Below are positions 13,150-62,583 of a stretch of 64,000 nt of DNA, piece after piece (within the stretch, counting starts at the first letter, position 1; each line of letters starts with the position of its first letter). The DNA comes from an uncultured Solibacteraceae bacterium (GTDB taxonomy: Bacteria > Acidobacteriota > Terriglobia > 20CM-2-55-15). Made by a program: the position numbers and the translations under genes. The stretch lies in contig CAZPBY010000012.1 in assembly GCA_964584785.1 (NCBI GenBank), positions 56,590-120,589 of the forward strand, given 5' to 3'. A model generated the notes under the pieces. That model was not told the origin of the DNA, did no database searches, and worked only from the letters and a program-made list of their open reading frames with translations.

Positions 13150-13206
13150 ATGTGGAACACGGGAAGGCGGCCGACCGTATTCCGTGACACTCCGGAGGTC
13201 GTCAAG

Positions 13207-27740: not shown

Positions 27741-27741
27741 A

Positions 27742-28935: not shown

Positions 28936-28967
28936 AGCAGTGTCCTTCTTTTACGAATTTCGAAGTG

Positions 28968-32235: not shown

Positions 32236-32257
32236 TCTGAAAAACCTCTAAGATCTG

Positions 32258-40954: not shown

Positions 40955-40958
40955 AGGC

Positions 40959-48100: not shown

Positions 48101-50113
48101 AGGCAGCATGACGTTTTGATTGGCACCGGCGGTTGCGGTGATCGTGGGTGTGGTGACGATTGTCACGTCACTCGACACACTGAACGGTCCGTCCGTCGCG
48201 GTCAATCGCAGGACGTAAGTTCCCCACGCCGAAAATGTCGCAGTTGTGCCTGGAGACGCCGCATTGTTGAAAGCGACATCGCCCGGACCGCTGACTTTTG
48301 TCCACAATACGGCAAACCCGGCGCCCGCAGGAGTCTCGGTCGCTGTTCCGGTGAGCGTAGCGGCGGCAGGTAGTTTCACGTTTTGATCAGAGCCGGCATT
48401 TACAGTGATCGTCGGTGTCGCCATGACAACGACGTCGCTGCTCTCGGAATACGGCCCATCGCTGGCAGTCAGTCGTAGAACGTACTTGCCCGATGCCGTG
48501 AAACTGGCGGTGGTGCTTGTGGCCGACGGCGTCCCGAAAATGACGTCGCCGGGTCCACTAACCTTACTCCACAATACCGCGATTCCGGCACCTGCCGGAG
48601 TCTCGCTGACCGTTCCCGAAAGGTTGACTCCGGCCGGCAATTTCACATTCTGGTCCTGACCTGCATTGACTGTAATGGTGGGGGCGGCCGTTATAGTGGT
48701 GTCGCTACTTGTACTGTGAGGGCCATCTGTTGCCGTGAGGCGCAACACGTACGTGCCCCACGCCGAGAACGTGGCAGTCGTTGCCGCAGACGATGGATTT
48801 GCGAATGCCACATCACCGGGCCCGCTGACCTTACTCCACGACAAGGAGATCCCCGGATTCGCCGGGATCTCCGTTGCGGCTCCTGCAAGCGGAGCCGCGG
48901 CAGGCAATTTGACGAACTGGTTGGCTCCGGCAACGGAAGTGATCGTAGGTATGGTCGTTACGGTCGTTTCACTATTGCTGCTGTAAGTCCCGTCACTGGC
49001 CGTCAGGCGCAGGACATATGTTCCCCACGCCGAGAAAGTCGCTGTCGTAACCGCTGCCGAGGGGTTGGCGAACGACACTTCGCCGGGTCCGCTTACTTTA
49101 CTCCACGAGGCCGAGAGGTTCGGGCTTGATGGTATCTCATTAATCTCACCGGTCAGTGTCGCGGAGGAAGGCAGCTTGATCTGCTGGTCTGACCCGGCGC
49201 TCGCAACAACGGTCGGCGACACGATGACGCCCACATCGCTGCTCGCGTTGAAGGGGCCGTCGATAGCGTTGAGTCGCAGTACGTAAGTACCGACAGCCGA
49301 AAAGTCCACGTTCGTTGCAGGTGATGCCGGGTTAGAAAAGGTAGCTATTCCCGGGCCACTAACCTTCTCCCAGAACACGGTAAAACCTGGACTCACCGGA
49401 AACTCACTCGCAGTTCCGGAAATCGTCAGGCTGCCGGGCAGCCTGAGGTTCTGGAGTGGCCCGGCACTCACATTGAAAGTGGGGGCAGCTGTGATGGTTA
49501 CGTCGCTGCTGCCGGCTTGCACATTATTCGACACCGACAATCGCAGAACGTATATACCGGCTAAAGAGAACGTAGCAGAGGTGTCGAAGGATGAAGGATT
49601 GCTAAACGCAACAAGACCAGGTCCACTGACCTGAGACCAGGAAGGTACGAATTTTCCCCCGGCATTAGAGTCCGAGTAGGCGGTTCCGTGCAGACTGACG
49701 CCGCTTGGCAGGACGATAGCCTGGTTCGGTCCGGCACTGACCGTGATGGTAGGACGCATCACGAAGTTGAGCCGGTTGGATGTCAATGCACCCATCCGCA
49801 CATAGACAGGTCCTGTGACGCTGTCCGCAGGTACGGTTACTACCAGTTTGTTCGAGGCCGCGGAATTTACAGTGGCCTGTGCAGTGGTGTTGCCCTTCCC
49901 TGGAAACACCACCAGGTTCAGGGACGGCGTCGTCGAGAATCCGCTTCCCATGATCTCGACTTTGGAACCGATCTGCGCTTCCGACGGACTCAACTCCCAC
50001 AGTTGCAGGCCGGACTTCGCGGCTTGAGCAAATGCTCCTGCGGCGACGATGATGGCTATGGCTAACCATCTCGTCGCGAACCGCAACCAATTTTTTGAAT
50101 GACTTTGTGACAT
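42167..50113 (-). CDS. Giant (~2648 aa) secreted cell-surface protein built as IPT/TIG + about 22 tandem PKD/Ig-like domains + C-terminal right-handed parallel beta-helix domain (putative polysaccharide lyase or glycanase).
   Basis: Signal peptide MSQSHSKNWLRFATRWLAIAIIVAAGAFAQA. Start chosen at 50113 with GGGGAG upstream; the ORF track starts at 50227. About 22 units of ~89-95 aa of the form PTIT..AGANQNVKLPA...L.G.A.ETP...GF...WSKVSGPG.V.F.N..S...TA.FSAWGTYVLRLTATDGPFS..S.VT. C-terminal ~500 aa carry beta-helix repeats (NN.I.., G..V.G., and so on) and end in SAWDIGAFQF. Confidence 0.85.
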   Translation of the reverse strand: MSQSHSKNWLRFATRWLAIAIIVAAGAFAQAAKSGLQLWELSPSEAQIGSKVEIMGSGFSTTPSLNLVVFPGKGNTTAQATVNSAASNKLVVTVPADSVTGPVYVRMGALTSNRLNFVMRPTITVSAGPNQAIVLPSGVSLHGTAYSDSNAGGKFVPSWSQVSGPGLVAFSNPSSFDTSATFSLAGIYVLRLSVSNNVQAGSSDVTITAAPTFNVSAGPLQNLRLPGSLTISGTASEFPVSPGFTVFWEKVSGPGIATFSNPASPATNVDFSAVGTYVLRLNAIDGPFNASSDVGVIVSPTVVASAGSDQQIKLPSSATLTGEINEIPSSPNLSASWSKVSGPGEVSFANPSAAVTTATFSAWGTYVLRLTASDGTYSSNSETTVTTIPTITSVAGANQFVKLPAAAPLAGAATEIPANPGISLSWSKVSGPGDVAFANPSSAATTATFSAWGTYVLRLTATDGPHSTSSDTTITAAPTITVNAGQDQNVKLPAGVNLSGTVSETPAGAGIAVLWSKVSGPGDVIFGTPSATSTTASFTASGKYVLRLTASDGPYSESSDVVVMATPTITVNAGSDQNVKLPAAATLTGTATETPAGAGFAVLWTKVSGPGDVAFNNAASPGTTATFSAWGTYVLRLTATDGPFSVSSDVTIVTTPTITATAGANQNVMLPASAVLAGIASETPLGSGFTTLWSKVSGPGNVLFANPASPNTTADFSAWGTYALRLTATDGPFIAISEVTVTTTPTITVSAGANQNVKLPLAAALSGNASETPMSPGFATAWSKVSGPGDVAFANAASPGTTVTFSAWGTYVLRLTAMDGPFNAASEVTIVTTPTITATAGANQNIMLPASAVLAGIAGETPLGPGFTTLWSKVSGPGNVVFANPASPGTTADFSASGTYVLRLTATDGPFSVISELTVTATPTITVSAGANQNVKLPVAATLSGNAGEIPLSAGFATAWSKVSGPGDVAFANGASPVTTATFSAWGTYVLRLTAADGPFGVSSDVTIVTTPTITATAGANQNIMLPASAVLAGIAGETPRGAGFTTLWSKVSGPGNVVFANPASPGTTADFSASGTYVLRLTATDGPFSVISELTVTAAPTITVSAGANQNVKLPAAATLSGNASEIPLSAGFATAWSKLSGPGDVAFANAASPVTTATFSAWGTYVLRLTATDGPFNAASDVTIITTPTITAAAGPNQNVKLPAAAALAGSASETPMGAGFATAWSKVSGPGDVLFANAASLNTTASFSAWGTYVLRLTATDTPFSATSEVTIITTPTIAVSAGVNQDVKLPAAAALAGVATETPTAAGFATAWSKVSGPGDVTFANAASSSTTASFSAWGTYVLRLTATDGPFSEISDVTITTTPTITATAGPNQNVKLPASGTLAAAAAETPASTGFTTVWSKVSGPGNVTFANPNSVATTADFTAWGTYVLRLTATDGPFSAISELTITATPTITASAGANQNVKLPATATLSGSASETPASAGFTKAWSKVSGPGEVTFADATSPATTASFSAWGTYVLRLTASDGPHNASSDVTITASPTITATAGANQNVKLPAEASLAGAATETPATATFATSWSKVSGPGSVTFSNASSLSTTASFSAWGTYVLRLTATDAPYSETSDLTVTTTPTITANAGANQNVKLPAEATLSGSGTSTPASGAFATAWSKVSGPGDVTFANAASLNTTATFSAWGTYVLRLTSSDGPFSETSDVTITTTPTITANAGANQNIKLPATATLAGTANSTPASAAFATSWSKVSGPGDVTFSNASSVNSTAAFSIWGAYVLRLTSTDGPFSASSDITITVAPALTVNAGPTQNVKLPASLTLPGTVEGLSANGTILWTKISGPGDVTFDNAASPSSTTTFSAWGTYVLRLTANDPPLLAAGDLTVIATPTVTVVAGPNQDVKLPGLISLAGSATVFPASESFTVLWSKVSGPGDVSFGNSAFPESTAEFSEAGTYVLRFTGTEGPYTAISDLTVTASPTITVNAGPDQTVRLPAAATMAGSAEEVPHSAGFGTTWSKVSGPGEVTFSDPASLTATANFSAPGHYKLRLTAAHGPFSGSSDVQVTVNPVSITVDTGPLKTIALPVRDVSLFGHVSGVDDVSYTVEWKQTSGPAQAVFSAPWALTTTASFTMAGVYGFDLTVSDGIVTDTASTTVAVLSAESQTAFYVDPTYTGLISDGSAAHPWKRFATDRPNEQWTAVNAALATNNVIVYYSARQATSDTPEIENKEINLWRTDIGTNRLTLDGMSKYNTNDDAPSWVDYSGTNKFNVSITTGGLSIGVQSPFTDFPNHYTTIRGFDVSGTTGRVAFAGNSTVVEYMHIHDLLNTGPSVIFHAAVNVNCAAVFGNLEDITLRNNVVERGYGEAIYISGNYLGDGGCLLWGNTHSDILIENNLLDQSDSNGGETDQIDLKAGLRNVTIRGNVLKGGNAFSSGIVSLGVIPGLDNVPVDRTDYLIENNQILDRNGYALSALLNQNGTVIRNNVISNSASGIAVAGDESDRYPYTFNLDVQIFNNTLNGVGIGVAHGKKIIVRNNLLANVPFGTFELAAFDSTVVDSDYNILVNGTLISNGWQEGPHSQSLPSNADLFVDPANGNFHLKSNNPAVQRGIDLHATGFDVDFAGKKRPIGSAWDIGAFQFIQ
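43660..49730 (-). repeat. ~6 kb array of about 22 tandem coding repeats (period ~267-285 bp) inside giant gene 42167-50113. Within it, 46250-48120 consists of near-identical 534-bp higher-order (two-domain) repeats.
   Basis: Plus-strand artefact ORFs at 46785, 47319 and 47853 are near-identical and spaced 534 bp apart. Minus-strand artefact ORFs 46734-46970 and 47268-47504 are identical over their first 50 aa. The translated protein shows two near-identical 178-aa blocks. Confidence 0.85.
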
Positions 50114-50288
50114 GACACTAGCTCCCCAGTGTCCTGTCCTTGGCTCGTGTCGTGTGTGAGCTAAACTATCTTGCTTGCGCTCACTTACTCCACCTGCCGG
50201 CCATACTGCCGGCAAGATGGACCACATCGAAACTATTCGTACCCGAGGACGGACTATCTGTGCAGCCTATCGAATGAACGCGTCGTTT

Positions 50289-51875
50289 CTACGAGGGTTT
50301 ACCCTCAACCGGAAACAGGACCGTTTTATCGACAAGGCGAAAAAGAAAAGCACCTACCGTAAACGAACACATTGCAAATACCGTCGGCATGCCGACCGCC
50401 CAAAGCTGCAACATCGAGCGGGAGACGGTAGCCCACGCTGTAAACCTGCTCCCAATCATGATTCCAAGCGCGCCCAACCCGCACGTTGCGCCAAGCTTGA
50501 GAGCGAACACACGCAACGAACTCCATCCCAGAGGACCGAAACTCCTCTGGGCCTTCCATATCATGTAAATCGTATTGCTGATCGACGCCAGCGACACCGC
50601 AATAGGCAGGCCGGGCAATCCGATCAGGGCGACAAGTCCTATTGCAGCGGCCGTATGAACACCCACGAAGATAAGCGTACTGATGAGAGGTGTTCTGGTG
50701 TCCAGATTCGCGTAAAAGAGCGTTTGAGTGACGCTGACGATACGGCCTAAGAAGAGGTCTGGAATCAAAAACCGGATGATCACGCTGGTCAGTATCGCGT
50801 CCGTCCTTGTAAATCCTCCTCTGCCGAAGAGCAGCATCAGCAAAGGCTCTGCCGTAAGAGCCAGCCAGATGCACACCGGCAGACCCACGCACGCCAGGAG
50901 CTGGAGGCTTTCGAAGAAGGCTTTCCTCTGAGCTCGCAGATCGTTCGCCGACGCATGCTTCGCGATCAACGGCAGTGTTACTTGTACGACACTACCGAGA
51001 AGGATGCCGCCCATCGCCTGCACGATCCTGGCGGCATAACGCATCACCGTGACACTTCCGCTGCCCAGGAACGAGGCCAGCAGATTCTGGAGAACGGTCC
51101 CGCTCTCACTGACAATGTGCCCTGCCAGTGGATGCCGGAATGATCGGATGATTTCCTTCAATGTCGTTTCACCCGGTTGAAGGACCCACCTATAACGGAA
51201 CCCTTCTTTGCGGAGCGCGATGAAGAGAGCGGTCACCTGAACCGCACCACCCAACACCATTCCGACGGCTACCGCGCGTACACCAAACTGCCCGCGGCTG
51301 AGAATCAGCACGATCGTCGTCATGATGTTTCCGACAAGTTTGCCTCCGGACGAGATCAGGTATCGATGGCGCGCATACAATACCGACTGCAAAATCGAAG
51401 ACAGGCCCTGGCACAGCAGGATCCAGAATGCCGTCCGGCTCAGCCACACGGCCAGGCCGATCGTTTGCGAAGTCAAACCCGGAATCTGAAGCGGGACGAT
51501 AGCCGTCGACAACAATGTTCCAGCCGAACACACCACGAGCAGCGCCACGAACGCCGTTGTGAGTACATTTCGCAGCAGCGCCCATCCCAACTCGTCGCCG
51601 CGTCCGAAATGCTCACTGAACACGGGAACCAGAATCTTGGGACACTGTATCGAGAAGACGCCAATGAGGAGCGTCGGAATAGTCAGTGCGGTGAGGAGCG
51701 CGTCGGTTTGATAACCGACACCGAAAAAGTTCAGGATTAGTGCGTCGAGAACGAATCCGCTGACGACGCCGGCACCCGAGAGAACGGCGATGGTGCTCGC
51801 GTTCTTGAATAGATAATGTTTTGAACCGATTTTATGAGCAGTCATGAAGGTTGAATTAACGCGTCCTTTCGTCAC
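50289..51875 (-). CDS. MurJ/MviN-family (MOP superfamily) polysaccharide or lipid-linked oligosaccharide flippase.
   Basis: 528 aa, about 14 TM helices. The N-terminal region (GFVLDALILNFFGVGYQTDALLTALTIPTLLIGVF...VPVFSEHFGRGDE) parallels the MurJ N-terminus (ARDAIVARIFGAG..TDAFFVAFKLPNLLRRIF...VPILAEY). Confidence 0.75.
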   Translation of the reverse strand: MTKGRVNSTFMTAHKIGSKHYLFKNASTIAVLSGAGVVSGFVLDALILNFFGVGYQTDALLTALTIPTLLIGVFSIQCPKILVPVFSEHFGRGDELGWALLRNVLTTAFVALLVVCSAGTLLSTAIVPLQIPGLTSQTIGLAVWLSRTAFWILLCQGLSSILQSVLYARHRYLISSGGKLVGNIMTTIVLILSRGQFGVRAVAVGMVLGGAVQVTALFIALRKEGFRYRWVLQPGETTLKEIIRSFRHPLAGHIVSESGTVLQNLLASFLGSGSVTVMRYAARIVQAMGGILLGSVVQVTLPLIAKHASANDLRAQRKAFFESLQLLACVGLPVCIWLALTAEPLLMLLFGRGGFTRTDAILTSVIIRFLIPDLFLGRIVSVTQTLFYANLDTRTPLISTLIFVGVHTAAAIGLVALIGLPGLPIAVSLASISNTIYMIWKAQRSFGPLGWSSLRVFALKLGATCGLGALGIMIGSRFTAWATVSRSMLQLWAVGMPTVFAMCSFTVGAFLFRLVDKTVLFPVEGKPS

Positions 51876-52748
51876 TCAGCCGAGAACCGCTCGGATCGCT
51901 CCCCACAAACCGCTCGCCTTGACGATGAGTTCGTGTCGATCAGCGGAGTCTGAAATGCAGATCCTGCGAAGCTTGTAGGCTGGCGTCGTTGCGGTGTTGA
52001 ATCCTCGGTCCAGCGTCAGAGCGCAACGGTATCCTGCCTTCTCCGCCAGCTCCACTTCGCGTTCGGAGTAATCACCGTTTGGATATGCGAGAGCGTAAAT
52101 CTCATGACCAAGCCTCGCCTGGAGGTCGAGTTTCGAGTTGGTGATCTCGGACTCGGCCCGAGCCGGCATGCATCGCGGCAGGATAGAGTGAAAAACCGTG
52201 TGCGACTGAAAGTCGGCCAACGTCTTCAGCTCTTCCACCTCGGCAAACGACAGCGCCTGCCTGTCATGGAATTCTTGTTGCTCCTCGAAACCTGTATCGC
52301 GAAGCGCCGCCCGGCGGTCCGCATCGGGAAGGGTTTTGAGCGACTGCACCACATCGGCAGCCGCGTCATGCTGGAACCAGAACCGTCGACGCGTATCGAT
52401 CACGCCGCTGCACAGGAAAATAGTCACCGGCACATTGTGCTTTTGAAGGACCGCTTTGAGGTCGTAATTACTCTGATGACCGTCATCGAGTGTAATAATC
52501 AGGGCTCTCTGAGGCAGCCGTAAACCGTGGGTTTCCCGGGCATCGACATATTGAGCGAGCGGAATGATGTTATAGAGCCGTTTCAGCAGGCCGAGGTGAG
52601 AATCCAGGACATCCGCCGCCGGCGCGTGATAAGCAAGAATCGTTACCTTGCTGCGCTGCAACACGGTGCGAATGAGGAATGGCAGCAGCGTCAGTCGCAG
52701 CGCCGCAAAAGCCAGCGCCCGCGACTCGGTACCGTTTACGCGACGCAT
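51876..52748 (-). CDS. Polysaccharide deacetylase (NodB-homology) family protein.
   Basis: ITLDDGHQSNYD (the TFDDG-type motif) and later H-containing motifs. 290 aa. Starts 1 nt after the flippase start, which is a tight junction. Confidence 0.7.
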   Translation of the reverse strand: MRRVNGTESRALAFAALRLTLLPFLIRTVLQRSKVTILAYHAPAADVLDSHLGLLKRLYNIIPLAQYVDARETHGLRLPQRALIITLDDGHQSNYDLKAVLQKHNVPVTIFLCSGVIDTRRRFWFQHDAAADVVQSLKTLPDADRRAALRDTGFEEQQEFHDRQALSFAEVEELKTLADFQSHTVFHSILPRCMPARAESEITNSKLDLQARLGHEIYALAYPNGDYSEREVELAEKAGYRCALTLDRGFNTATTPAYKLRRICISDSADRHELIVKASGLWGAIRAVLG

Positions 52749-53740
52749 GAGTCCTCTTTCGCGGTTCGCGTTCGCTGTCGAACGACCTGCTTATACACAT
52801 TCACGATTTCTTCAACCAGGCGCGGCTGATCGTATTTCAGCATCGCCTTCCTGCCATCGAACCCGGCGGCTCGTGATGTCTCGACCACCGACCTCAGCTT
52901 GTTGGCGATGTCGCTGATGTCGTCGGTGCAGATTTGTGTTCCCGGTATGTTCTTCAGGATTCCCCGCACATCACCGACGTCGGTCGACACAACGGGCAGG
53001 TTGCAGGCGAGAGCTTCCTTGATCGATGTCGGCGAACCTTCGCGAGAGGAACTAAGAATCATGGCGTCCGCGGCGCTGTAATACCAGGGCATCTCGCGAT
53101 TGTCCGAATTGTAGACACTCTCCAGCCGGACATTCATTCCTTCTTGAATCAATCGATCGACCGCTGCCTTAGCCAGATGGTATCGCTTCACTTCACGCGT
53201 CGGATCGAATGGGAATAGGACGATGTGTTTGTCGTCAGTCCAGCCTACTCGCGTCCGGGCCTCCATGCGATCGTAAGGCTTGAATATATTGAGATCCACA
53301 CCACAAGGGATAACGGTGCCTGGAATCCTCTTTTGCATCTCTTCCGACACCACAATGACTCTGTCGGCGAAGCGCCAGATTAAACGGCTGCAGAGGCTGT
53401 CGACTCCGCCGCCAAGAACATCGCTACCATGCAGTGTCAGGACAAGCGGGGACTGCACGCGAAACCACGCCGGAAATCCCGACAGGCCATAGTGCGCGTG
53501 CACTACATCGTAAGCCGCTCCACGCGTGATGCGAACGACTTCGGCGGCACCCTTCAAGTAGTTCAGCTTGGAGCGAAACCCAAGGATATTGACAACGTCG
53601 ACGGTGTGGCCAAAGGTTCGCAGTTGCTGCGCCTGCTGCCACACGAAGGCGCCATAACCCGGCCGTTCGGCGGATGGATACATGTTGGTGACAAATAGAA
53701 TTTTCACGACGCTAGTTTGACCGGGCGGTGTTCCGCACAA
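52736..53740 (-). CDS. Glycosyltransferase family 4 (GT-B fold).
   Basis: KILFVTNMYPSAERPGYGAFV N-terminus and a C-terminal EGSPTSIKEALACNLPVVSTDVGD (E-x7-E-like GT4 motif). Overlaps neighbouring genes at both ends. Confidence 0.8.
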   Translation of the reverse strand: MCGTPPGQTSVVKILFVTNMYPSAERPGYGAFVWQQAQQLRTFGHTVDVVNILGFRSKLNYLKGAAEVVRITRGAAYDVVHAHYGLSGFPAWFRVQSPLVLTLHGSDVLGGGVDSLCSRLIWRFADRVIVVSEEMQKRIPGTVIPCGVDLNIFKPYDRMEARTRVGWTDDKHIVLFPFDPTREVKRYHLAKAAVDRLIQEGMNVRLESVYNSDNREMPWYYSAADAMILSSSREGSPTSIKEALACNLPVVSTDVGDVRGILKNIPGTQICTDDISDIANKLRSVVETSRAAGFDGRKAMLKYDQPRLVEEIVNVYKQVVRQRTRTAKEDSCVA

Positions 53741-54884
53741 ATGACCGATAAATATTGAGGTGGCGGGCAGCGAGCTGTTTCAACGAAAACATCTCCTCGA
53801 CTCTTTCACGTCCGGCGATGCCAAGACGCGTGGCTTGACCCGATTGGTCCAGGAGCAATTCGATCTTCTCCGCCACACCTTTGTATTCACCTTGTGGCAC
53901 CAGAAATCCGTGGATGCCATTTTCGATGAGCTCGGCACTTCCCCCGCCATCCGTAACGACGACGGGCTTTCCCGCGGCCATGTACTCCATTACCGAATTC
54001 GATATTCCTTCCGTGAACGTGCATAGAACTCCGATGTCCATCTGCTGTATCAGCGGCTCCACATCGGTTCGCTGCCCCAGAAACTGGATTCGGTCGCCGC
54101 CGGGGACTACCAACTGCCTGCAAGCTTCGAGGTTCTTGCCGCCGCCAACCATCACAAAAATGACGTCGTCTCGCTTTGCAACGATACTTTGAGCGGCTCG
54201 AATGAATGTCGGGAAGTCTTTATAGTCGGAGAACTCGGCGACCATGCCGACAACCTTGCGGCCGTCTGCTTTGAGGTCGGATTCGTTTCGGCGAACCGAA
54301 ACCTGGCTGTGGAATCGATTCAAGTCCAGCCCATTGTAGATAACGTGATTCCCACGCGAATCGTGGTGCAGTCCTCGGCTTGCAAACCCGGCTTGTGAGT
54401 TACTGATTCGGGCATCGGCCAGGTACAACATCAGCTTGTGCCATTGCCAACGAGGCCCGCTTCCTGAAAAGGCGTTGCGCAATGTGGCGTTGATGATTCT
54501 GATTCCCATCAAACGAGCCAGTGGCCACGCATAAGACATGGCCATCTCGCTATTGGTGTGAATGATATCCGGCCGAAACTCGCGGAGAATCCGGAGCAGT
54601 CGGGTGAACACGCTGGGATCCCATCGAAACCGCCTCAAGAGGTAGACCAGCGGAATTCCGAGCTTTTGAATCTCCGCGACATAAAACTGTTCCGTTCCCA
54701 TGGTGACGACCAATGCATCGATCGATTGGTCGGCATTCAGCGCCTTCAGCAGCTCGCAAATCTGACGCTCCTTGCCTCCGACCCGCAGGCTGTCAACGAG
54801 GTAAAGGACGCGGACATTCGACCGAATGGTGTCGCTTATATCCGGCATCGCTTCAGCCGCTTGTGTGATGTAACCAGACTTCAT
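53712..54884 (-). CDS. Glycosyltransferase family 4.
   Basis: VLYLVDSLRVGGKERQ N-terminus (GT4 N-terminal domain). C-terminal EGISNSVMEYMAAGKPVVVTDGGGSAELI. Confidence 0.8.
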   Translation of the reverse strand: MKSGYITQAAEAMPDISDTIRSNVRVLYLVDSLRVGGKERQICELLKALNADQSIDALVVTMGTEQFYVAEIQKLGIPLVYLLRRFRWDPSVFTRLLRILREFRPDIIHTNSEMAMSYAWPLARLMGIRIINATLRNAFSGSGPRWQWHKLMLYLADARISNSQAGFASRGLHHDSRGNHVIYNGLDLNRFHSQVSVRRNESDLKADGRKVVGMVAEFSDYKDFPTFIRAAQSIVAKRDDVIFVMVGGGKNLEACRQLVVPGGDRIQFLGQRTDVEPLIQQMDIGVLCTFTEGISNSVMEYMAAGKPVVVTDGGGSAELIENGIHGFLVPQGEYKGVAEKIELLLDQSGQATRLGIAGRERVEEMFSLKQLAARHLNIYRSFVRNTARSN

Positions 54885-55900
54885 CGCGTCATCGCCATCG
54901 CGAGCGAGGGGTAACCGTAGGCCGCGTTCACGTCTCCAAGGATTTCATCCAGGGCGCCGACGTCAGAGCTTTTGAGGTCTTTAGCAAACTTGTAGTTCAT
55001 GTCCTTAAAAGCCGACTTGGTTCTTATGTAGTCGTGGACCTTAGACGATGGAGCGAGATGTGAAAACGTGAACAACCCGTCCATTGCTGCTATCGGGTCG
55101 CGCAAGGCATCTTCATAGCGAATTTCCAGATACTGGCCCGGACCGATCGCTTTAGCCTCTTCGCGAGCCATCAGCATGATTCGACGCCACTGGACCGCCG
55201 TCAGGGCGACCGGCGTCTTGCCGTACTTGTCGTAGAGTTCGATATCTTCTTCGGTCAGACCTCCGCGCCACCACGGTTTGTGATAGCCGCCACCATTCTT
55301 CCAAAAATCGACTTTCATCAGGGAGTTCACGACCGCGCGGCCGTCTCGGACAACGTGGATGAAAAGCGCATCGGGAAAGATGCTGTTGAGATAGGCCATC
55401 CTCGTCGGTCCTGTTATCTTGGTCGCGAACCTGTGCTTGCTCTGGTACCTCGTGACCTTGTCAACGAGCCGGACGACCTTATCCTTTTCTTCCTGCGACG
55501 CCTTTTGGTTCAACAGGTAGTCGAATCTGAATTTTTGCCCGCAGCAGAGTTCCCACGCAGGGTAGCACTCAACGGCATAAGGACGAGGTATCCTGAACGC
55601 CGACTCACCGTTCTGCCTCTTGGCGCCGAGTAAATCATTCGAAATTGCCAGTCGCGAAAATAATGACACCACTGGAAAACGAGGGAATCGGTAGAGGTAA
55701 TTCGAGAACCACGCCAGGTCGGGGTGTGAGGAAAACGCCTCAAACAGAATCGTCGTCCCACTCCTTGGGGCACCAACAAAAAAAATCGGTCGATCCACTT
55801 GTTCGCTCATCATTTGTTTTTCATCCTTGGAATACTGAAAGAAAGTCGTCCTTGAAAACCTACCCGACGTGTTTGTACAAGAGCTCACCGACGAGGACAA
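54881..55900 (-). CDS. Sulfotransferase-family protein (PAPS-dependent).
   Basis: PIFFVGAPRSGTTILFEAFSSHP matches the 5'-PSB loop (GxPRSGTT) of sulfotransferases. The 3'-PB region (RDGRAVVNSL) also fits. 339 aa. Confidence 0.75.
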   Translation of the reverse strand: MSSSVSSCTNTSGRFSRTTFFQYSKDEKQMMSEQVDRPIFFVGAPRSGTTILFEAFSSHPDLAWFSNYLYRFPRFPVVSLFSRLAISNDLLGAKRQNGESAFRIPRPYAVECYPAWELCCGQKFRFDYLLNQKASQEEKDKVVRLVDKVTRYQSKHRFATKITGPTRMAYLNSIFPDALFIHVVRDGRAVVNSLMKVDFWKNGGGYHKPWWRGGLTEEDIELYDKYGKTPVALTAVQWRRIMLMAREEAKAIGPGQYLEIRYEDALRDPIAAMDGLFTFSHLAPSSKVHDYIRTKSAFKDMNYKFAKDLKSSDVGALDEILGDVNAAYGYPSLAMAMTR

Positions 55901-56927
55901 ATAGCCGCTCCGGAATCACAGGCAGCACTTTCCGGTAAATCGGATTTGTCCTCGGCTTCAAGTTGCCGGCCTCGTCTTGAGTTTGTAGCGGTTTGGGTTT
56001 CGTCGTGTCGCGGTAATAGAACAATTCAGCGCGGTGCGCTCCCAGACGGTTTTTGAAAGTGATCAGGCCGTGATGGTCCAGATCCGAACGTCCCAGATCG
56101 AACTGCGTGGCTCCCTGGGACTTCGCTTCCCGTATCGTCTGCCAGCATAGAAACGGCATGGCGCCGAGATTGTTATACCGATCGTCCGAGCAGGCATATT
56201 TGTAAACGATGGTGTCCCTGAAACTCAGCGTCATGGTGGCCGCAATGGGAACGCCGTCCTTTGACGCGATCCGGATGGCAACCTGATCACCGAGACACTG
56301 AACGACGTTTTCAAACCATTTGAAAGGTTGAGGTGGCACACCGTGCCGGCGCCGGGTGGATACGAACAGCCGGTAGAAACCGTTCAACAGAGCCGCGGAA
56401 TTGCCGGATTCATATTGCAGGTTTTCCCGCTCCGCGCGCCTCACGGCGTTTCTCTCACTCTTAACGAATCCCTTGAAGATCTCCTCTTCCGTTCGTGAAA
56501 GATCCAGCGTGTGCAGGCAGAAGCTCTTGAAAGTCCCGAAGCCGGAAACGCCGTCCAGCGTCGATGCCGGCAACACCGATGGGCGTATCTCGACGAACCG
56601 TTGCTGGGAACGGCGACGCTCTTCATGCGCAAAACACAACAATTCTTTGAGCGCTGCACCGCTATGAACCAGCGGACTGCAATGATCCGAAAACGGCAGC
56701 GATACACTTCGGTTGCCCGTCAACCAGCTCTTCAAATGGCAGAGAACCAGACCGTCCCTGAGCTGCCCCGACGGTAGCGTTGTGACATACGCCACCGGTT
56801 CAAATCCGTACGTCAGCTTCAACGCCTCGAGCCATTTGGCGGTATGGAAGATGCATGCCGCCGGATGACTCTCAACGAACGTATGCCAACGCGGATCTTG
56901 AATCGGATCGATTCTGGTGACTGTCAT
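55860..56927 (-). CDS. FemAB-family protein (GNAT-fold aminoacyl/peptidyl transferase-like), of the PEP-CTERM-locus-associated type.
   Basis: 355 aa. N-terminus MTVTRIDPIQDPRWHTFVESHPAACIFHTAKWLEALKLTYGFEP is typical of the FemAB-like proteins encoded next to exosortase/EPS genes. Confidence 0.65.
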   Translation of the reverse strand: MTVTRIDPIQDPRWHTFVESHPAACIFHTAKWLEALKLTYGFEPVAYVTTLPSGQLRDGLVLCHLKSWLTGNRSVSLPFSDHCSPLVHSGAALKELLCFAHEERRRSQQRFVEIRPSVLPASTLDGVSGFGTFKSFCLHTLDLSRTEEEIFKGFVKSERNAVRRAERENLQYESGNSAALLNGFYRLFVSTRRRHGVPPQPFKWFENVVQCLGDQVAIRIASKDGVPIAATMTLSFRDTIVYKYACSDDRYNNLGAMPFLCWQTIREAKSQGATQFDLGRSDLDHHGLITFKNRLGAHRAELFYYRDTTKPKPLQTQDEAGNLKPRTNPIYRKVLPVIPERLFVLVGELLYKHVG

Positions 56928-56950: not shown

Positions 56951-58240
56951 TTACTTACACGCCACCCGCTCGACAAATCGGACGTAGGCGTCCCTTTGCC
57001 GGGGCCAGTTATAAACGGAATTGAATTTTTCGGAATTCCTGGCCAGTTGCTCGCGCCGGGCCTTGTCGCGATACAGCTTACGGATGCGATCGGCCAGATC
57101 CTCGACGTCCTCCGCGTTGAAGAACTCGACAGTGTCTTCGCTGAAGTAGTGCGACACGACACTCGTTCGAGCGACAACGGCAGGGACACCCAGCGCGACG
57201 TACTCCAGCAACTTCGTGGGGAGGATACCGTCCGTGAAGACATCGCGCCGATAGGGAACAATACCGACATCATGCGACTGAATAAGCTCTGCGAGTTCAA
57301 CCGACGTCAGAAACTCCGTCGTTACCTCGACATCCTTCTGAAGGCCAAGCTCCTTCACCAGTTCGCGAATGGCATCAATGTAGTCGCCGCGGCCATGTAT
57401 CCTCAGAGAGATGTTCGGTATCTCGTTACGAACCGATTGGTAAGCCCTCAGCAGAAGGTCGATACCATATCGATGTGCGAGCGTCCCATGGTAGAGCAGC
57501 CTTAGCGGAAGCCCCTCCCCTCCGTTCTTTTGCAAACGGCGGCTCAGTGGCTGTCGAGTGAAGTGTGTTTCATCCGCCAGATTCATCACAACGAAGCACT
57601 TCTCCTTCGGAACACCGCGCTTGATAAGCGTGTCCCTCCAAAGATCCGTTACCGTGATAACCCGATGCGCAAACCGGCATGATAGGTATTCTTGCAATTT
57701 AAGAACGTATGCCGGCAGGCTATCCATGGACTGTTTGAATCTGGAACAATAGAACTCCGGCATCAGGTCGTGAATGTCGAGAATGACCCGACTGCCGGTC
57801 AGGCGTGGAACAAGCGCCGCAAACACAAGGAAGTCGGGCAGATTGTGACACTGCACAACGTTGAAACGGTTCTTCAAATGAAGCCGCGACACTTTCAGGA
57901 ATGCCAGGAAGGCAAAAGCCACGTATTCGAACAGTTGTGCGAATCGGCTCCATTTCTTCTGGCCGAGGCCGATGCGATGAATCGACAGTTGCCCATTCGA
58001 TTCATACAGCGGCTCCGAGCCGAAGCGCCGGCAGATGACGTCGACCACGTGGCCTTGCGCCATCAGTGCCTCGGCCTCGCGCTGTACACGGACCTCGGAA
58101 AAGGGGTAGTAGTTTTGCACGACCATGCAATGCCGGAGAGGCTTTGCGGCCGTGGCTTGTATCTTCGCCTCTGAAACCTCAGAGGGATCCAGTATCGAGG
58201 GTGATCTCATAGCTTTTTCCGGAAGTTTTCGATCGGACAC
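56951..58240 (-). CDS. Glycosyltransferase family 4 (PEP-CTERM/EpsH1-system-associated sugar transferase type).
   Basis: 429 aa with a GT-B two-domain layout. C-terminal region LLRLLYHGTLAHRYGIDLLL...EFLTSVELAELIQSHDVGIVPY matches the GT4 C-terminal domain. Confidence 0.75.
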   Translation of the reverse strand: MSDRKLPEKAMRSPSILDPSEVSEAKIQATAAKPLRHCMVVQNYYPFSEVRVQREAEALMAQGHVVDVICRRFGSEPLYESNGQLSIHRIGLGQKKWSRFAQLFEYVAFAFLAFLKVSRLHLKNRFNVVQCHNLPDFLVFAALVPRLTGSRVILDIHDLMPEFYCSRFKQSMDSLPAYVLKLQEYLSCRFAHRVITVTDLWRDTLIKRGVPKEKCFVVMNLADETHFTRQPLSRRLQKNGGEGLPLRLLYHGTLAHRYGIDLLLRAYQSVRNEIPNISLRIHGRGDYIDAIRELVKELGLQKDVEVTTEFLTSVELAELIQSHDVGIVPYRRDVFTDGILPTKLLEYVALGVPAVVARTSVVSHYFSEDTVEFFNAEDVEDLADRIRKLYRDKARREQLARNSEKFNSVYNWPRQRDAYVRFVERVACK

Positions 58241-58242
58241 GG

Positions 58243-59448
58243 TTAGGCGACGGCTGCCCGGGTCGCGTAGAACTCTTTAATCGCATCGACGACCTTGTCC
58301 TGCTGTTCGTCGCGCAGTTGCGGATACATCGGCAGTGACAGGATTTGTGAAGCGGCCTCCTCACAAACGGGGAAATCGCCCTTGCGATATCCAAGATGCG
58401 CATAGGCGTCCTGTAAGTGGAGTGGCAATGGATAGTGCAGACCGGTTCCGATTCCCTGCGCCGTGAGGTGCGACTGCAGTTGATCGCGAACCGCGGTTCG
58501 AATCACATAAAGGTGGTAGACACCACGACTCCAGTCCGGCTCAACGGGCAATGCCAGTTCCTCGACCTCGGCCAGCAGTTCGTTGTAACGCTTCGCCAAT
58601 CGAGCGCGGCTCGCGTTCCATTCGGCCAGGTAGCGCAATTTGACGCTCAAGATGCCGGTCTGAACGGCGTCCAGCCGGCCATTGTAACCCTCGAATGCAT
58701 GGAAGTACTTCTGACGTTGGCCGTGATCTCGGAGCATGCGGACCTTGGCCGCAATGGCGTCATCGTCTGTCGTCAATCCACCGCCTTCACCCATGGCGCC
58801 CAGATTTTTGGCAGGATAAAAACTGAAAGCGGCGGCCCTTCCAACACTGCCGGCCGTTTTCCACTCCGACTTCTTCGGCAATAGACATTCCGCGCCGTGC
58901 GCCTGGCAGGCGTCTTCGACGACGAACAGGCCGTATCGCCCGGCGATTTCGAGAATGCCTTCCATGTCTGCCATCTGCCCGTACAGATGAACCGGCACGA
59001 TAGCCTTCACCCGCAGGCCGGTTGCTCGATCGATCGGCAGCCCGGTTTTCGAATCATGCTCACACGCCGTCTCCAGGTAATTTGCCAGCGCGATAGTGCT
59101 CATGTTTGACGTTGCCGGGTCGATGTCGATGAATCGGCAAGTGCCACCGGCCTGTGTGATCGCTTCGCCGGTTGCAATGAACGTATTCGGCACCGTGAGC
59201 ACGGCGTCGCCCGCGGTGATACCCGCGGCGATCAGCGCGAAACGAAGAGCGTCGGTACCGCTGTTCAGAGCGACGCTGTGTTTCGTTCCGCAAAACTCGG
59301 CAAACTCTTTCTCAAACCTCTGGACAAAGGGTCCGCCGATGGCGATGCCGGTCGTGAGCACTTCATCAAAAACCGCCTGAAGTTGCTCTTTCAGTTCTAG
59401 GTTGCTTTGAATTAAATCTACGAATGGAACGATTGTTTGACTATTCAT
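58243..59448 (-). CDS. DegT/DnrJ/EryC1/StrS-family PLP-dependent nucleotide-sugar aminotransferase.
   Basis: 401 aa. PLP-binding region SFYPAKNLGAMGEGGGLTTDD (Lys within the AKNLG motif). N-terminal substrate domain. Confidence 0.85.
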   Translation of the reverse strand: MNSQTIVPFVDLIQSNLELKEQLQAVFDEVLTTGIAIGGPFVQRFEKEFAEFCGTKHSVALNSGTDALRFALIAAGITAGDAVLTVPNTFIATGEAITQAGGTCRFIDIDPATSNMSTIALANYLETACEHDSKTGLPIDRATGLRVKAIVPVHLYGQMADMEGILEIAGRYGLFVVEDACQAHGAECLLPKKSEWKTAGSVGRAAAFSFYPAKNLGAMGEGGGLTTDDDAIAAKVRMLRDHGQRQKYFHAFEGYNGRLDAVQTGILSVKLRYLAEWNASRARLAKRYNELLAEVEELALPVEPDWSRGVYHLYVIRTAVRDQLQSHLTAQGIGTGLHYPLPLHLQDAYAHLGYRKGDFPVCEEAASQILSLPMYPQLRDEQQDKVVDAIKEFYATRAAVA

Positions 59449-59941
59449 TAGTACCTGTCTCCTCCTTGATATAACGAACGATACGCGCTGGGTTTCCTAC
59501 GACGATTGCCGATGGCGGCACATCCTTGGTAACGACGCTGCCTGCACCGACAATCGCGTTTTCGCCGATGGTGACATTCGCCAGGATGGTTGTGCCCGAT
59601 CCGATGGAGGCTCCCTTTTTCACGAGGGTAGGGCTGACACTCCAATCCGCTTCTGTTTGCAACTGTCCAGAGCCGGTGGTGGCTCTGGGATAAAGATCAT
59701 TAATAAAAGTCACGCTATGGCCGATGAAGACGTTGTCCTCGATCGTGACACCTTCACAAACGAATGTATGGCTGGATATCTTGCAGTTCTTTCCAACAAA
59801 CGCGTTTTTCTGGATCTCGACAAATGCACCGATCTTGGTGTTGTCTCCGACCGTGCAGCCATAAAGGTTGATGAACCTTGCTAGTCTGACGTTCTCACCC
59901 AACCGAACATCATCGGCAATACTTACCAAATCGTTCTTCAT
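59441..59941 (-). CDS. Left-handed beta-helix (hexapeptide-repeat) sugar N-acetyltransferase (WbbJ/PglD-like).
   Basis: 166 aa of tandem hexapeptide repeats (IGAFVEIQKNAFVGKNCKISSHTFVCEGVTIEDNVFIGHSVTF). The gene is paired with the DegT aminotransferase gene immediately downstream on the minus strand (58243-59448). Confidence 0.8.
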   Translation of the reverse strand: MKNDLVSIADDVRLGENVRLARFINLYGCTVGDNTKIGAFVEIQKNAFVGKNCKISSHTFVCEGVTIEDNVFIGHSVTFINDLYPRATTGSGQLQTEADWSVSPTLVKKGASIGSGTTILANVTIGENAIVGAGSVVTKDVPPSAIVVGNPARIVRYIKEETGTNE

Positions 59942-59974: not shown

Positions 59975-61342
59975 CTACCGGCGCGACACTCCGAGCTTGT
60001 CCATAAGCTCATAAAGTGTCGGCCTGCTGATCGACAACTCCGCTGCAGCCCGAGTCACGTTGCCCCTGTTCTTGTTCAGTGCGGCTTCGATCATCTGACG
60101 CTCCAGCGCTTCTCGCGCCTGCCCCAACGACTGCCCCTCGTATTCAGCGTAGGACGTTGCAAGACCGAGATCTTCGGGCGTAACCCTTCCGGTCTCCGCC
60201 ATGATGGCCGCCCGTTGAATTCTGTTTTCGAGTTCCCGGACGTTTCCGGGCCACGAGTGCGATTCGATCGCTTTAATGGCTCGCGGCGTAAAGACAAGCT
60301 TCTTCTGCTGCGCGTCCGACTGCCGTTGCAGGAATGCGTTGGCCAGCTGGATCACGTCGCCTTCGCGCTGACGCAGCGGAGGCATGGACACAACCACTAC
60401 GGCAAGCCGATAGTAAAGGTCTTCGCGGAAGCGTCCATCGAGCATCGCTTTGGTCAAGTCGATGTTGGTCGCGGCAATCACCTTTGCATCCACTTTGATC
60501 AATGTTCTGCCGCCGACTCTCTCGAATTCACGTTCCTGCAAAAACCGCAGAAGCTTTACTTGTAAGGCCGGTGACAGTTCTCCGATCTCGTCGAGGAACA
60601 AGGTCCCACGCTGGGCCAATTCGATTCGCCCCTGCCGCTGGACGTGAGCCCCGGTGAACGCTCCCTTTTCGTGGCCGAAGAGTTCGCTCTCCAGAAGGTT
60701 TTCGGGAATGGCTCCGCAGTTGATGGCGATAAACGGGCCGTTCTTTCTCGAACTCAGACGGTGGATGGCACGCGCGACAAGCTCCTTGCCCGTGCCGCTT
60801 TCGCCTCCGATCAGAACGGAGGCATCCGAGCCCGACATCTTTCGGATTGACGCGAATACCGATTGCATTTGCGGACCGCTCCCGATGATGCCTTCCAGCG
60901 AATCGGTCTGGCCGTTTGCCAGCAGTTCGCGATGGTCGAGCTCAAGCTGATGAACGTGTACAGCCCGTGTCATCACAATCTTGAGTTCGTCGATGTTGAC
61001 CGGCTTGCAGAAGAAATCGTAGGCACCCTGCGCTATCGCCTGAATGCCGTTCTCTTTTTCATCCTGACCGGTAATGACAATAATCTTGAGCGATGGATCG
61101 GACTGAAGTAGATCCGCCAGCGCGGCAAAACCTTCACGGGTGTCGCCGGGAGATGGAGGGAGTCCGAGATCCAGAGTCACAACAGCGGGTCTGTGTTGCT
61201 TCAAGACCTGAAGAGCGGTCTGCCTGTCTTCAGCCAGCAATACCTCGAACTGTTGCGTGAGAGCCCATCTCATCTGGCTTCTCACTTCGTCGTCATCTTC
61301 AACAATCAAAATCGTAGGCAGTTCCATACGTTTTAATTCCAT
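59975..61342 (-). CDS. prsR: Sigma-54-dependent response regulator PrsR (PEP-CTERM-box response regulator type).
   Basis: N-terminal receiver domain (ILIVEDDDEVRSQ...DLGLPPSPGDTREGF, the PrsR-characteristic insert). AAA+ sigma-54 interaction domain (GESGTGKE...GAFTGA). C-terminal Fis-type HTH. Confidence 0.85.
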   Translation of the reverse strand: MELKRMELPTILIVEDDDEVRSQMRWALTQQFEVLLAEDRQTALQVLKQHRPAVVTLDLGLPPSPGDTREGFAALADLLQSDPSLKIIVITGQDEKENGIQAIAQGAYDFFCKPVNIDELKIVMTRAVHVHQLELDHRELLANGQTDSLEGIIGSGPQMQSVFASIRKMSGSDASVLIGGESGTGKELVARAIHRLSSRKNGPFIAINCGAIPENLLESELFGHEKGAFTGAHVQRQGRIELAQRGTLFLDEIGELSPALQVKLLRFLQEREFERVGGRTLIKVDAKVIAATNIDLTKAMLDGRFREDLYYRLAVVVVSMPPLRQREGDVIQLANAFLQRQSDAQQKKLVFTPRAIKAIESHSWPGNVRELENRIQRAAIMAETGRVTPEDLGLATSYAEYEGQSLGQAREALERQMIEAALNKNRGNVTRAAAELSISRPTLYELMDKLGVSRR

Positions 61343-62583
61343 TAGAACGCAAAGTGCAGTGCTTTGGCGCTCGACGGGACGTTAACCATATATCGTGAGG
61401 GTGAATCCGCGGGAGCCGCTAGGACCGGTAAGGGAATGCGGTCGCCATTAGCTCGTTCCAACCGAGCTGTCAAAGGTCGCGCAGAAGCCGGTAACATCAG
61501 TGTAACTTCCGGATCTCCAAACCTGGACGTATCCAGTGAACTTCGAATCGAAAGAGTGGTTTCGTTGTTCAACCGGTACGCCGTGATGTGCATCTGCCGG
61601 CGGGCCTCGCAGTAAGCCGCAAGGTCTCCCATGGTCGCAACCCAAATGTTGCCGGACCTCTGCTCATTATCGAAGTAGTGCAGGATTCGGCATAAATGGT
61701 CTTCAAAAAGTTCCGACGGGTCTGACGGATGAAGCCATAAAGAGTAGGCAGCGCGGCGTTCCATCGCCTTTTCGACAAAGATTCTTACCTTCTCGAGGTA
61801 ATCGTAGTGCCGTGCGGACCGCATGTTCATGCTTTCGTAAATCTTGTACACGCCGGATGGTGTTCGTTCCGGATATGAGCATCGAATACGATCGTCTCGG
61901 TGCCGGACCGCGACAATTCCGTCCTCGGCCAGCAACGGCAGGTAGGAATGGCCCATGATGTTGTGCGGAAACACAAGAGATCGCGGTGTTACACCGAAGG
62001 GGCGCATCGCACCGGCGCAACTCTCGATCTCACGATGAACCAGATCGGGCGTGGAGCAGCGATCCGAAAAATTGATGTGGCTGAACGTGTGAGTTCCGAT
62101 CTCATGATCCATCTTCGCGTCGACGATCTGCTGCACAAGATCAGGCGCATACCATAAGGGATCCCTTGTCCAGTCGGAGCAGGGATCGTGCAGATACCAG
62201 TCGCCGGTCCATCGGTCGTTAGCTCGCGGCCTGGGCATGTTGGCATGAGCAAGGCCGGAGCAAGAACGTGTGCAGCTCTCGAGAAACAGGTGGCCGACGG
62301 TGGCCCAGGTGATCGGAATGGAGAAGTCATCCAGCATTTTCAAAAGCACCGGCATGTTGGCGCGTTCCTGCACGCCTCTCCACATCGCTGCGTCCGGATC
62401 ACGCCCGCGCCAGGCCCAGCTCATCTCAAAGTCCGCAGAGATCGATACGGCTGCACGTGCATCATTCTTGAATGGTGCGATCTCGATTCCAGAAAAGGAC
62501 CGATGCTCAGGCGGATGACCTGGAGCGAAGTTCCCCTTCAACCCGAAAATCGTTTTCAGAAGTGTGGGGTTATCTACTTTCAT
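61342..62583 (-). CDS. Polysaccharide deacetylase (NodB-homology) family protein inserted between prsK and prsR.
   Basis: 413 aa with the motifs ISADFEMSW and HEIGTHTFSH. The stop lies 4 nt from the prsK stop and the start overlaps the prsR start position. Confidence 0.6.
   Translation of the reverse strand: MKVDNPTLLKTIFGLKGNFAPGHPPEHRSFSGIEIAPFKNDARAAVSISADFEMSWAWRGRDPDAAMWRGVQERANMPVLLKMLDDFSIPITWATVGHLFLESCTRSCSGLAHANMPRPRANDRWTGDWYLHDPCSDWTRDPLWYAPDLVQQIVDAKMDHEIGTHTFSHINFSDRCSTPDLVHREIESCAGAMRPFGVTPRSLVFPHNIMGHSYLPLLAEDGIVAVRHRDDRIRCSYPERTPSGVYKIYESMNMRSARHYDYLEKVRIFVEKAMERRAAYSLWLHPSDPSELFEDHLCRILHYFDNEQRSGNIWVATMGDLAAYCEARRQMHITAYRLNNETTLSIRSSLDTSRFGDPEVTLMLPASARPLTARLERANGDRIPLPVLAAPADSPSRYMVNVPSSAKALHFAF

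Follow-up and report, generated by a model that had tools for sequence, protein, structure and literature searches.

Rhizobia pair the carbohydrate sulfotransferases NodH and NoeE with NodPQ, a CysD/CysN-CysC-type supply of 3'-phosphoadenosine 5'-phosphosulfate (PAPS), and LpsS and KpsS are sulfotransferases for lipopolysaccharide (LPS) and capsule. The Stf family is linked to sulfated glycolipids and metabolites and is not known from exopolysaccharide (EPS) operons of the Wzy type. The synechan (xss) cluster of Synechocystis sp. PCC 6803 is a Wzx/Wzy EPS cluster with the sulfotransferases XssA and XssE; sulfation was shown chemically, and members of PF13469 and PF00685 served as markers in that study (PMC8205485). 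The wps-1 cluster of Actinoplanes missouriensis is also a Wzx/Wzy EPS cluster with sulfotransferases (WpsB and WpsH), and its predicted sulfated EPS is chemically unverified (PMC13390465). Recent papers still portray sulfated polysaccharides as essentially a cyanobacterial trait among bacteria (PMC8205485, PMC13390465), and chemical surveys of EPS from sludge and mats have revealed sulfated, including N-sulfated, glycoconjugates, the responsible enzymes being unnamed (PMC10483923, PMC9723792). Our literature searches returned no paper tying a sulfotransferase to an EPS locus of the PEP-CTERM/exosortase/PrsKR type or to an acidobacterial one. Here we describe a 64-kb stretch of bacterial DNA (from contig CAZPBY010000012.1; the whole stretch is called the window) in which a sulfotransferase gene lies on the minus strand inside an EPS operon headed by genes for PrsK and PrsR.

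The sulfotransferase of the window is probably a cytoplasmic, PAPS-dependent enzyme of the Sulfotransfer_3 type that sulfates a repeat unit linked to undecaprenyl diphosphate (Und-PP), with a sulfated exopolysaccharide as the product. The source bacterium most likely makes a sulfated polysaccharide. The subfamily to which the enzyme belongs is phylogenetically widespread but uncharacterized, and the window locus, a counterpart with a 70% identical sulfotransferase and CysD and CysN/C genes, and the wider subfamily are concrete candidate genes for sulfated EPS outside the cyanobacteria. The operon is compact and could be tested by heterologous expression. Its value is that of a lead and a marker rather than of a new mechanism, because neither the enzyme class nor the pathway logic is new.

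The sulfotransferase and its conserved motifs

The sulfotransferase feature is real and far beyond chance. In a Pfam scan, the protein matched Sulfotransfer_3 (PF13469) with 78 bits (E 1.6e-21, cut-off 27) and Sulfotransfer_1 with 26.5 bits, also above threshold (cut-off 22), and no other family was reported. This result rules out a non-sulfotransferase P-loop protein and agrees with the initial annotation of this DNA, made from the sequence, which had called a PAPS-type sulfotransferase with a GAPRSGTT loop and had proposed a profile search against these families as a check. A pseudogene was likewise ruled out, the protein being full length with every motif residue intact. The NCBIfam model for NoeE (NF052394) matched nothing but the P-loop and scored 15 bits (cut-off 500), which rules out an ortholog of NoeE or NodH. 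Hydropathy analysis of the protein found no transmembrane (TM) or signal segment (maximum KD19 of 1.13) and, because there is no hydrophobic segment, we take the sulfotransferase to be a soluble cytoplasmic enzyme.

The gene most likely starts at the ATG at position 55813. The open reading frame (ORF) that had been noted initially, 54881..55900 on the minus strand, is present and encodes 339 amino acids (aa) from a TTG. We dropped this TTG at 55900 in favor of the ATG, which has an AAGGA upstream and gives a 310-aa product identical to that called in two public assemblies (P0001). The choice of start bears on the overlaps with both neighbors that had been described for the gene. The downstream overlap stands: the stop codon of the sulfotransferase gene and the start codon of the next gene, which encodes a family 4 glycosyltransferase (GT4), share an ATGA, by which, as read from the sequence, the two genes are translationally coupled. 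The upstream overlap of 41 bp exists only with the maximal TTG-initiated ORF; with the ATG, a gap of 46 nt follows the stop of the FemAB-like gene at 55860.

The residues expected to bind PAPS are nearly invariant. GAPRSGTT, the 5'-phosphosulfate-binding (5'-PSB) loop, stands within FFVGAPRSGTT, and P16-R-S-G-T-T21 comes after strand 10-14 of an AlphaFold2 model. R156 and S164 of the 3'-phosphate-binding (3'-PB) motif are at strand 150-155 and helix 158-165, with the eight-residue spacing found in SULTs and TPSTs. Among 45 full-length homologs (42-69% identity), R17, S18, G19, T20, E82, R128, K132, T134, G135, P136, R156, D157, R159, S164 and E234 were invariant. In a larger alignment of 188 sequences, which took in genome-derived relatives with 25-35% identity, conservation was at least 95% for R17 (97%), G19 (98%), E82 (98%, and 96% in the 56 most distant sequences), K132, R138, H153, R156 (100%), D157, R159, S164 (99%) and Y233-E234. 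The 3'-PB Arg and Ser, whose absence had been named as an argument against a sulfotransferase, are therefore retained as R156 and S164. We infer that the enzyme uses PAPS; the CysD and CysN/C genes beside the 64% and 70% identical homologs (below) lend indirect support to a transfer of sulfate from PAPS.

The predicted fold is that of a sulfotransferase. The AlphaFold2 model, built from the alignment, had a mean pLDDT of 94.3 and a pTM of 0.92. The initial annotation had suggested structural modeling. The model matched solved sulfotransferases: the best 50 listed Foldseek matches in the PDB were all enzymes with the sulfotransferase fold, and nearly all were sulfotransferases. The top match was Stf9 of M. 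avium (2z6v; E 8.6e-9, TMq 0.62, 15% identity), followed by TPST1/2, Stf1 of M. tuberculosis (2zq5) and the sulfotransferase domains of CurM and olefin synthase (OLS). By sequence, the closest solved proteins were TPST1/2, with E values of 2e-8 to 1e-4 for the single sequence and 6.5e-14 for the family profile (TPST1). The alignment with TPST was limited to three blocks, query residues 7-34 (5'-PSB), 138-167 (3'-PB) and approximately 208-260 (YE block), and the TPST segment after the 5'-PSB helix (query beyond residue 34) was unaligned. The catalytic Glu of TPST2 lies in this segment.

Gene neighborhoods and possible acceptors

The sulfotransferase is most likely co-expressed with the glycosyltransferases of the operon. 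The minus-strand genes from 63999 to 50289 form an uninterrupted run, in which no gap or overlap exceeds 46 nt. In the pathway that we propose, the enzyme would be expressed together with the glycosyltransferases of a Wzx/Wzy-type EPS operon directly behind the PrsK/PrsR genes. The PRSGTT loop would hold the 5'-phosphosulfate of PAPS, and R156 and S164 its 3'-phosphate. The acceptor nucleophile would be activated by a conserved acidic residue, for which E82 is the most likely candidate, as catalytic base, and a sugar of the Und-PP-linked repeat unit would be sulfated on the cytoplasmic side of the membrane. Export of the sulfated unit would fall to the MurJ/Wzx-like flippase and polymerization to Wzy, giving a sulfated exopolysaccharide. 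PAPS is present only in the cytoplasm, and therefore sulfation would precede flipping.

Relatives of the sulfotransferase are numerous and occur in many phyla. A search of 5.8 billion proteins gave 1070 relatives at E up to 1e-5, and almost all of those listed carried PF13469. An exhaustive HMMER search of 1.84 billion cluster representatives (50% identity) gave 175 matches at E<=1e-30, 931 at 1e-10 and 5107 at 1e-3; the 175 clusters are those that we assign to the subfamily. At least 521 stretches of species-representative genomes encode relatives (49% identity for the best match listed), from Actinomycetota, Gemmatimonadota, Desulfobacterota, Pseudomonadota, Chloroflexota, Planctomycetota, Verrucomicrobiota and other phyla. 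Sulfated bacterial EPS, initially described as uncommon, is so among characterized examples in the literature; in genomes, relatives of this enzyme are encoded in the 521 or more stretches noted above.

Homologs of the sulfotransferase are found largely among genes for polysaccharide synthesis. For the 17 closest homologs from species-representative genomes, we counted Pfam families among the 89 genes lying up to three positions away: GT4 had 17 matches, Polysacc_deac_1 had 7, two Wzx-type flippase models had 5 and 4, other sulfotransferases had 4 and polysaccharide lyases had 3. By tblastn, GT4 was in the flank of 12 of the 17 loci. The locus of a 70% identical homolog (P0007) is a rearranged version of that in the window, with PrsR, hexapeptide acetyltransferase and GT4 genes and, further on, genes for DegT, the sulfotransferase, a carbohydrate esterase family 4 (CE4) deacetylase, GT4 (390 aa), GT4 (332 aa), UGDH, a CysD-type protein, a fusion of CysN and adenosine 5'-phosphosulfate (APS) kinase, Wzy and a CE4-like protein (412 aa). 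This last gene, at the end of the P0007 stretch, is a counterpart of the CE4-like gene at 61342..62583 in the window. A 64% identical homolog (P0008) is followed by TauE, CysD and CysN/C (NCBIfam: CysD, 540 bits against 413; bifunctional CysN/CysC, 1048 against 715), and one of 69% identity (P0002) lies between a DegT aminotransferase and the undecaprenyl-diphosphatase BacA. GT4, Wzy and Wzx genes surround three homologs of 48-52% identity (P0015, P0019 and P0023), and at the P0023 locus there are also a heparinase II/III-like gene and two further sulfotransferases from other subfamilies. CysD and CysN/C together make PAPS. Three homologs lie beside CysD and/or CysN/C genes, and one or both were within the flank of 10 of 83 loci.

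The setting is also found in more distant genomes. A Verrucomicrobiia metagenome-assembled genome (MAG; DASXZY010000061.1, locus L080, 1838..10867 and 20164..20865) carries, in synteny with the window, genes for GT4, GT4, a deacetylase and a flippase (61% identity to 53712..54884 for the first GT4, then 50%, 50% and 30% to their window counterparts). A 29% identical sulfotransferase follows, and CysD is approximately 10 kb away. Based on this synteny, the same EPS cassette carries a sulfotransferase in a different phylum. In a deltaproteobacterial MAG (L017), the sulfotransferase is beside two CE4 deacetylases, an XrtA-type amidotransferase and GT4. A Wzy-type cluster from JGI 3300041082 (L087, 1167..14619) contains a heparinase II/III-like gene and three sulfotransferases, each of a different subfamily; the window protein has 48% identity to one of the three and only the P-loop in common with the other two. 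This cluster may specify a glycosaminoglycan-like sulfated polymer.

From the gene context, we infer a glycan acceptor and action on a lipid-linked intermediate; we also presume O- rather than N-sulfation. A polysaccharide or lipid-linked target, as had been proposed for this gene, is supported because the gene is coupled to a GT4 gene in an EPS operon, because homologs are in Wzx/Wzy/GT4 loci and because three of them are next to CysD/CysN/C. Several points weigh against this reading. Among solved proteins, the nearest in sequence sulfate protein tyrosine and not carbohydrate, no curated NCBIfam equivalog matches the protein, family scans of the window ORFs found no cysD, cysN or cysC in the 64 kb, and none of the genes called at the P0002 and P0008 loci is for a glycosyltransferase. 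Furthermore, co-transcription is presumed from gene spacing, and E82 is a guess from conservation.

It is very unlikely that the enzyme modifies tyrosine in a protein or peptide in the manner of TPST or RaxST, with a secreted protein of the system as its target, such as one of the nearby giant surface proteins with PKD repeats. TPST1/2 are the best sequence matches among solved structures, they are among the top Foldseek matches, and a secreted-type protein of 2686 aa is encoded directly downstream of the operon, but only the three PAPS-binding blocks resemble TPST and the segment of the catalytic Glu is left unaligned, and the TM-scores are 0.44-0.53 for TPST versus 0.62 for Stf9. Translational coupling to a glycosyltransferase also speaks against such a role, as do the GT4, Wzy, Wzx and deacetylase neighbors kept by homologs in many phyla. 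The homolog loci examined contain no RaxX/RaxB-like pair of peptide and exporter, and the neighbors in the window are FemAB-like, GT4, deacetylase and flippase genes. We consider it quite unlikely that the acceptor is a lipid or small molecule other than a polysaccharide (a glycolipid, a menaquinone derivative or a polyketide) and that the position in the EPS operon is incidental. Such an acceptor would fit the best structural match (the mycobacterial Stf9), the matches to Stf1 and to the CurM and OLS domains, the JGI label "omega-hydroxy-beta-dihydromenaquinone-9 sulfotransferase" on some homologs, and the two loci without a called glycosyltransferase. However, the gene is interior to a tightly packed EPS operon and overlaps a GT4 gene by 4 bp, polysaccharide genes dominate the neighborhoods of homologs, and Pfam and NCBIfam scans found no polyketide synthase (PKS), menaquinone or lipid-synthesis genes flanking it in the window. 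Even at P0002, the neighboring sugar aminotransferase and BacA point to chemistry of glycans linked to undecaprenyl phosphate (Und-P).

A third alternative is that the enzyme is an N-sulfotransferase. Together with a CE4 de-N-acetylase, the DegT aminotransferase or both, it would turn an amino sugar in the lipid-linked repeat unit into a sulfamate, as a split bacterial counterpart of NDST, the animal N-deacetylase/N-sulfotransferase of heparan sulfate. We regard this as unlikely. CE4 deacetylases are the second most common neighbor family of the homologs (7 of 89); a deacetylase directly follows the sulfotransferase at P0007, and two adjoin it at L017. The window itself has two CE4-like genes, the product of one lacking a signal peptide or TM segment. 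In the two closest homologs with informative contigs (69%, P0002, and 70%, P0007), DegT is directly upstream of the sulfotransferase, and chemical analysis of sludge EPS has revealed N-linked sulfate (PMC10483923). Against this, the deacetylase of the operon (51876..52748), with a hydrophobic segment at its N-terminus, may work outside the cytoplasm, and the sequence has nothing that separates N- from O-sulfotransferases. CE4 deacetylases and DegT aminotransferases are, moreover, common in EPS loci without a sulfotransferase, and for that reason their co-occurrence is weak evidence. If N-sulfation were true, the subfamily would be an NDST counterpart assembled independently of the animal enzyme, and it would give the "N-linked sulfate" of environmental EPS a genetic origin.

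Features of the window

The gene order of the operon differs in one respect from that first described, in which the sulfotransferase was between two GT4 genes (Table 1). The downstream neighbor is indeed a GT4 gene; the upstream neighbor is FemAB-like, and the nearest upstream GT4 gene is one gene further.

Table 1. Positions of the sulfotransferase gene, its motifs and the associated genes in the window.
Feature	Position	Strand	Basis or remark
PrsK-type histidine kinase	62587..63999	-	TIGR02916, 297 bits (cut-off 300), model positions 221-679
CE4-like deacetylase-family gene, 413 aa, between PrsK and PrsR	61342..62583	-	Polysacc_deac_1, 27.6 bits
PrsR, sigma-54-dependent PEP-CTERM-box response regulator	59975..61342	-	TIGR02915, 606 bits (cut-off 503)
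Hexapeptide-repeat sugar N-acetyltransferase	59441..59941	-	Pfam Hexapep; NeuD/PglB/VioB family below cut-off
DegT/DnrJ/EryC1 sugar aminotransferase	58243..59448	-	Pfam, 351 bits
GT4 glycosyltransferase	56951..58240	-	Pfam GT4 domains
FemAB-family/GNAT-like gene, immediate upstream neighbor	55860..56927	-	Pfam FemAB and Acetyltransf_6; best NCBIfam match TIGR03019 ("FemAB family XrtA/PEP-CTERM system-associated"), 137 bits, below cut-off (260)
AAGGA, resembling a ribosome-binding site	55824..55828	-	10 nt upstream of ATG 55813; putative, from reading the sequence
Sulfotransferase coding sequence	54881..55813	-	310 aa plus stop; maximal ORF reaches TTG at 55900
5'-PSB loop, G14-A-P-R17-S-G-T-T21	55751..55774	-	Conservation; aligns with PRSGTT of TPST1/2
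E82, candidate catalytic base	55568..55570	-	Conservation
3'-PB motif, R156-D-G-R-A-V-V-N-S164	55322..55348	-	Aligns with RDGRASVHS of TPST1/2
ATGA overlap, sulfotransferase stop and downstream GT4 start	54881..54884	-	4 bp, read from sequence
GT4 glycosyltransferase, stp2-like, downstream neighbor	53712..54884	-	Glycos_transf_1/Glyco_transf_4; TIGR03088, 183 bits (cut-off 409)
GT4 glycosyltransferase	52736..53740	-	Pfam GT4 domains
CE4 polysaccharide deacetylase	51876..52748	-	Polysacc_deac_1, 56 bits; one N-terminal hydrophobic segment
MurJ/Wzx-type flippase	50289..51875	-	Pfam MurJ, 206 bits, and Polysacc_synt_3; about 10 hydrophobic segments
Wzy_C-family polymerase/ligase, candidate for the pathway	32258..33706	-	Pfam Wzy_C, 67 bits

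We call this a PrsK/PrsR-headed EPS locus of the PEP-CTERM-system type and not a proven XrtA system, because we found no exosortase among the scanned window ORFs of at least 150 aa and no window ORF with a PEP-CTERM-like tail. The exosortase XrtA and the PEP-CTERM proteins may be encoded outside the 64-kb window. XrtA-type FemAB, stp glycosyltransferase and amidotransferase models were the best matches of their genes and were below the equivalog cut-offs (TIGR03108, 564 against 817). The PrsK gene probably starts beyond the end of the window: the listing of its ORF begins at 63999, and the match covers no more than the C-terminal two thirds of the model. By hydropathy, the product of the CE4-like gene between PrsK and PrsR has no signal peptide or TM segment. 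Scans for sigma-54 promoters (TGGCAC-N5-TTGCW, up to two mismatches), sigma-70 promoters and intrinsic terminators gave no more matches than in shuffled sequence and were uninformative on transcription units. No Rfam family matched the window.

The window contains a second glycan module (25857..33706, minus strand). It encodes an XrtA-type asparagine-synthase-like amidotransferase (564 bits, below cut-off), a WecE-like transaminase (591 bits) of the dTDP-4-amino-4,6-dideoxyhexose transaminase type, an ArnC-like family 2 glycosyltransferase (GT2), RmlA, a PMT_2 enzyme of the GT-C type and the Wzy_C protein. This module looks like a pathway for periplasmic decoration with Und-P-linked sugars beside a polymerase. 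A nucleotide-sugar dehydrogenase is also encoded further along the window.

Several large surface-type proteins are encoded in the window as well. Directly downstream of the flippase gene, 42167..50227 (minus strand) encodes the protein of 2686 aa, with at least 19 K319L-like PKD repeats (tandem period of 267 bp, approximately 69-75% matches) and, at its C-terminus, a right-handed beta-helix region and a choice-of-anchor-Q-like tail; it has no PEP-CTERM tail. A protein of 2059 aa (34087..40266, plus strand) has three DUF4082 domains and DMFA2_C (dimethylformamidase-like), fn3, Big_7 and purple-acid-phosphatase N-terminal domains. Between these two giant genes, 40289..42095 (minus strand) encodes an ATP-grasp "carbamoyl phosphate synthase-like" protein (302 bits, PRK12767.1-1) and a YfcE-type phosphodiesterase. 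Two adjacent genes (20791..23937 and 24131..25843, plus strand) encode NosD-like beta-helix proteins, one of them also with PKD repeats. Both end in a near-identical C-terminal tail (..SAWPYSGAAPDIG..) that resembles the end of the 2686-aa protein, and this shared tail may be an anchoring or sorting domain.

The sole taxonomic clue in the window is a duplicated permease of the ADOP family (13150..15651, plus strand; TIGR03434, 885 bits against a cut-off of 622). Expansion of this family is a signature of Acidobacteriota, and the gene suggests an acidobacterial origin.

Comparison with known systems

The sulfotransferase resembles the tyrosine sulfotransferases TPST1/2 in its PAPS-binding blocks and fold and not in its setting. 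It shares with the human and tick enzymes (5wrj, 3ap1, 8w5z) near-identical PRSGTT and RDGRAxVxS motifs, the xYEqL block and the overall fold. Unlike TPST1/2, to which identity is approximately 16-19% over structural alignments (TM 0.44-0.53), it has an insertion of approximately 45 residues after the 5'-PSB helix (residues ~35-80). Its genomic context is glycan synthesis and not, as would suit an enzyme of the RaxST type, a peptide substrate and exporter. Like Stf9 (2z6v) and Stf1 (2zq5), it is a bacterial cytoplasmic enzyme of the Sulfotransfer_3 type, but the mycobacterial proteins are larger (365-392 aa versus 310 aa).

CysD and CysN/C genes near the 64% and 70% identical homologs recall the rhizobial pairing with NodPQ. 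In contrast to this locus, which has no nod genes, the acceptors of NodH/NoeE and LpsS/KpsS are the lipo-chitooligosaccharides of Nod factors or LPS and K-antigen. The similarity to NDST, which is offered as a lead, is the idea of a deacetylase combined with a PAPS sulfotransferase. In NDST, which is a Golgi enzyme and belongs to the Sulfotransfer_1 type, the two activities are fused, whereas here they would be encoded by separate genes in one locus.

The closest described counterparts in overall organization are EPS clusters. The wps-1 cluster differs from the window locus in coming from an actinomycete, in having two sulfotransferases, of InterPro families of the Gal/GlcNAc/GalNAc type and the heparan-sulfate type, and in having mutant phenotypes. 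The synechan cluster differs in being regulated by XssS/R/Q rather than by PrsK/PrsR and sigma-54, in having more than the single sulfotransferase found here, and in its host, the window being probably from Acidobacteriota, with sulfation of its product predicted from genes. The likeness to XssA and XssE is one of gene context and not of sequence comparison: in both cases, a PAPS-type sulfotransferase is among the glycosyltransferase genes of a Wzx/Wzy-type EPS cluster, by a dedicated two-component regulator. Sulfation in the synechan pathway is predicted to occur at the stage of the repeat unit, as we propose for the operon in the window.

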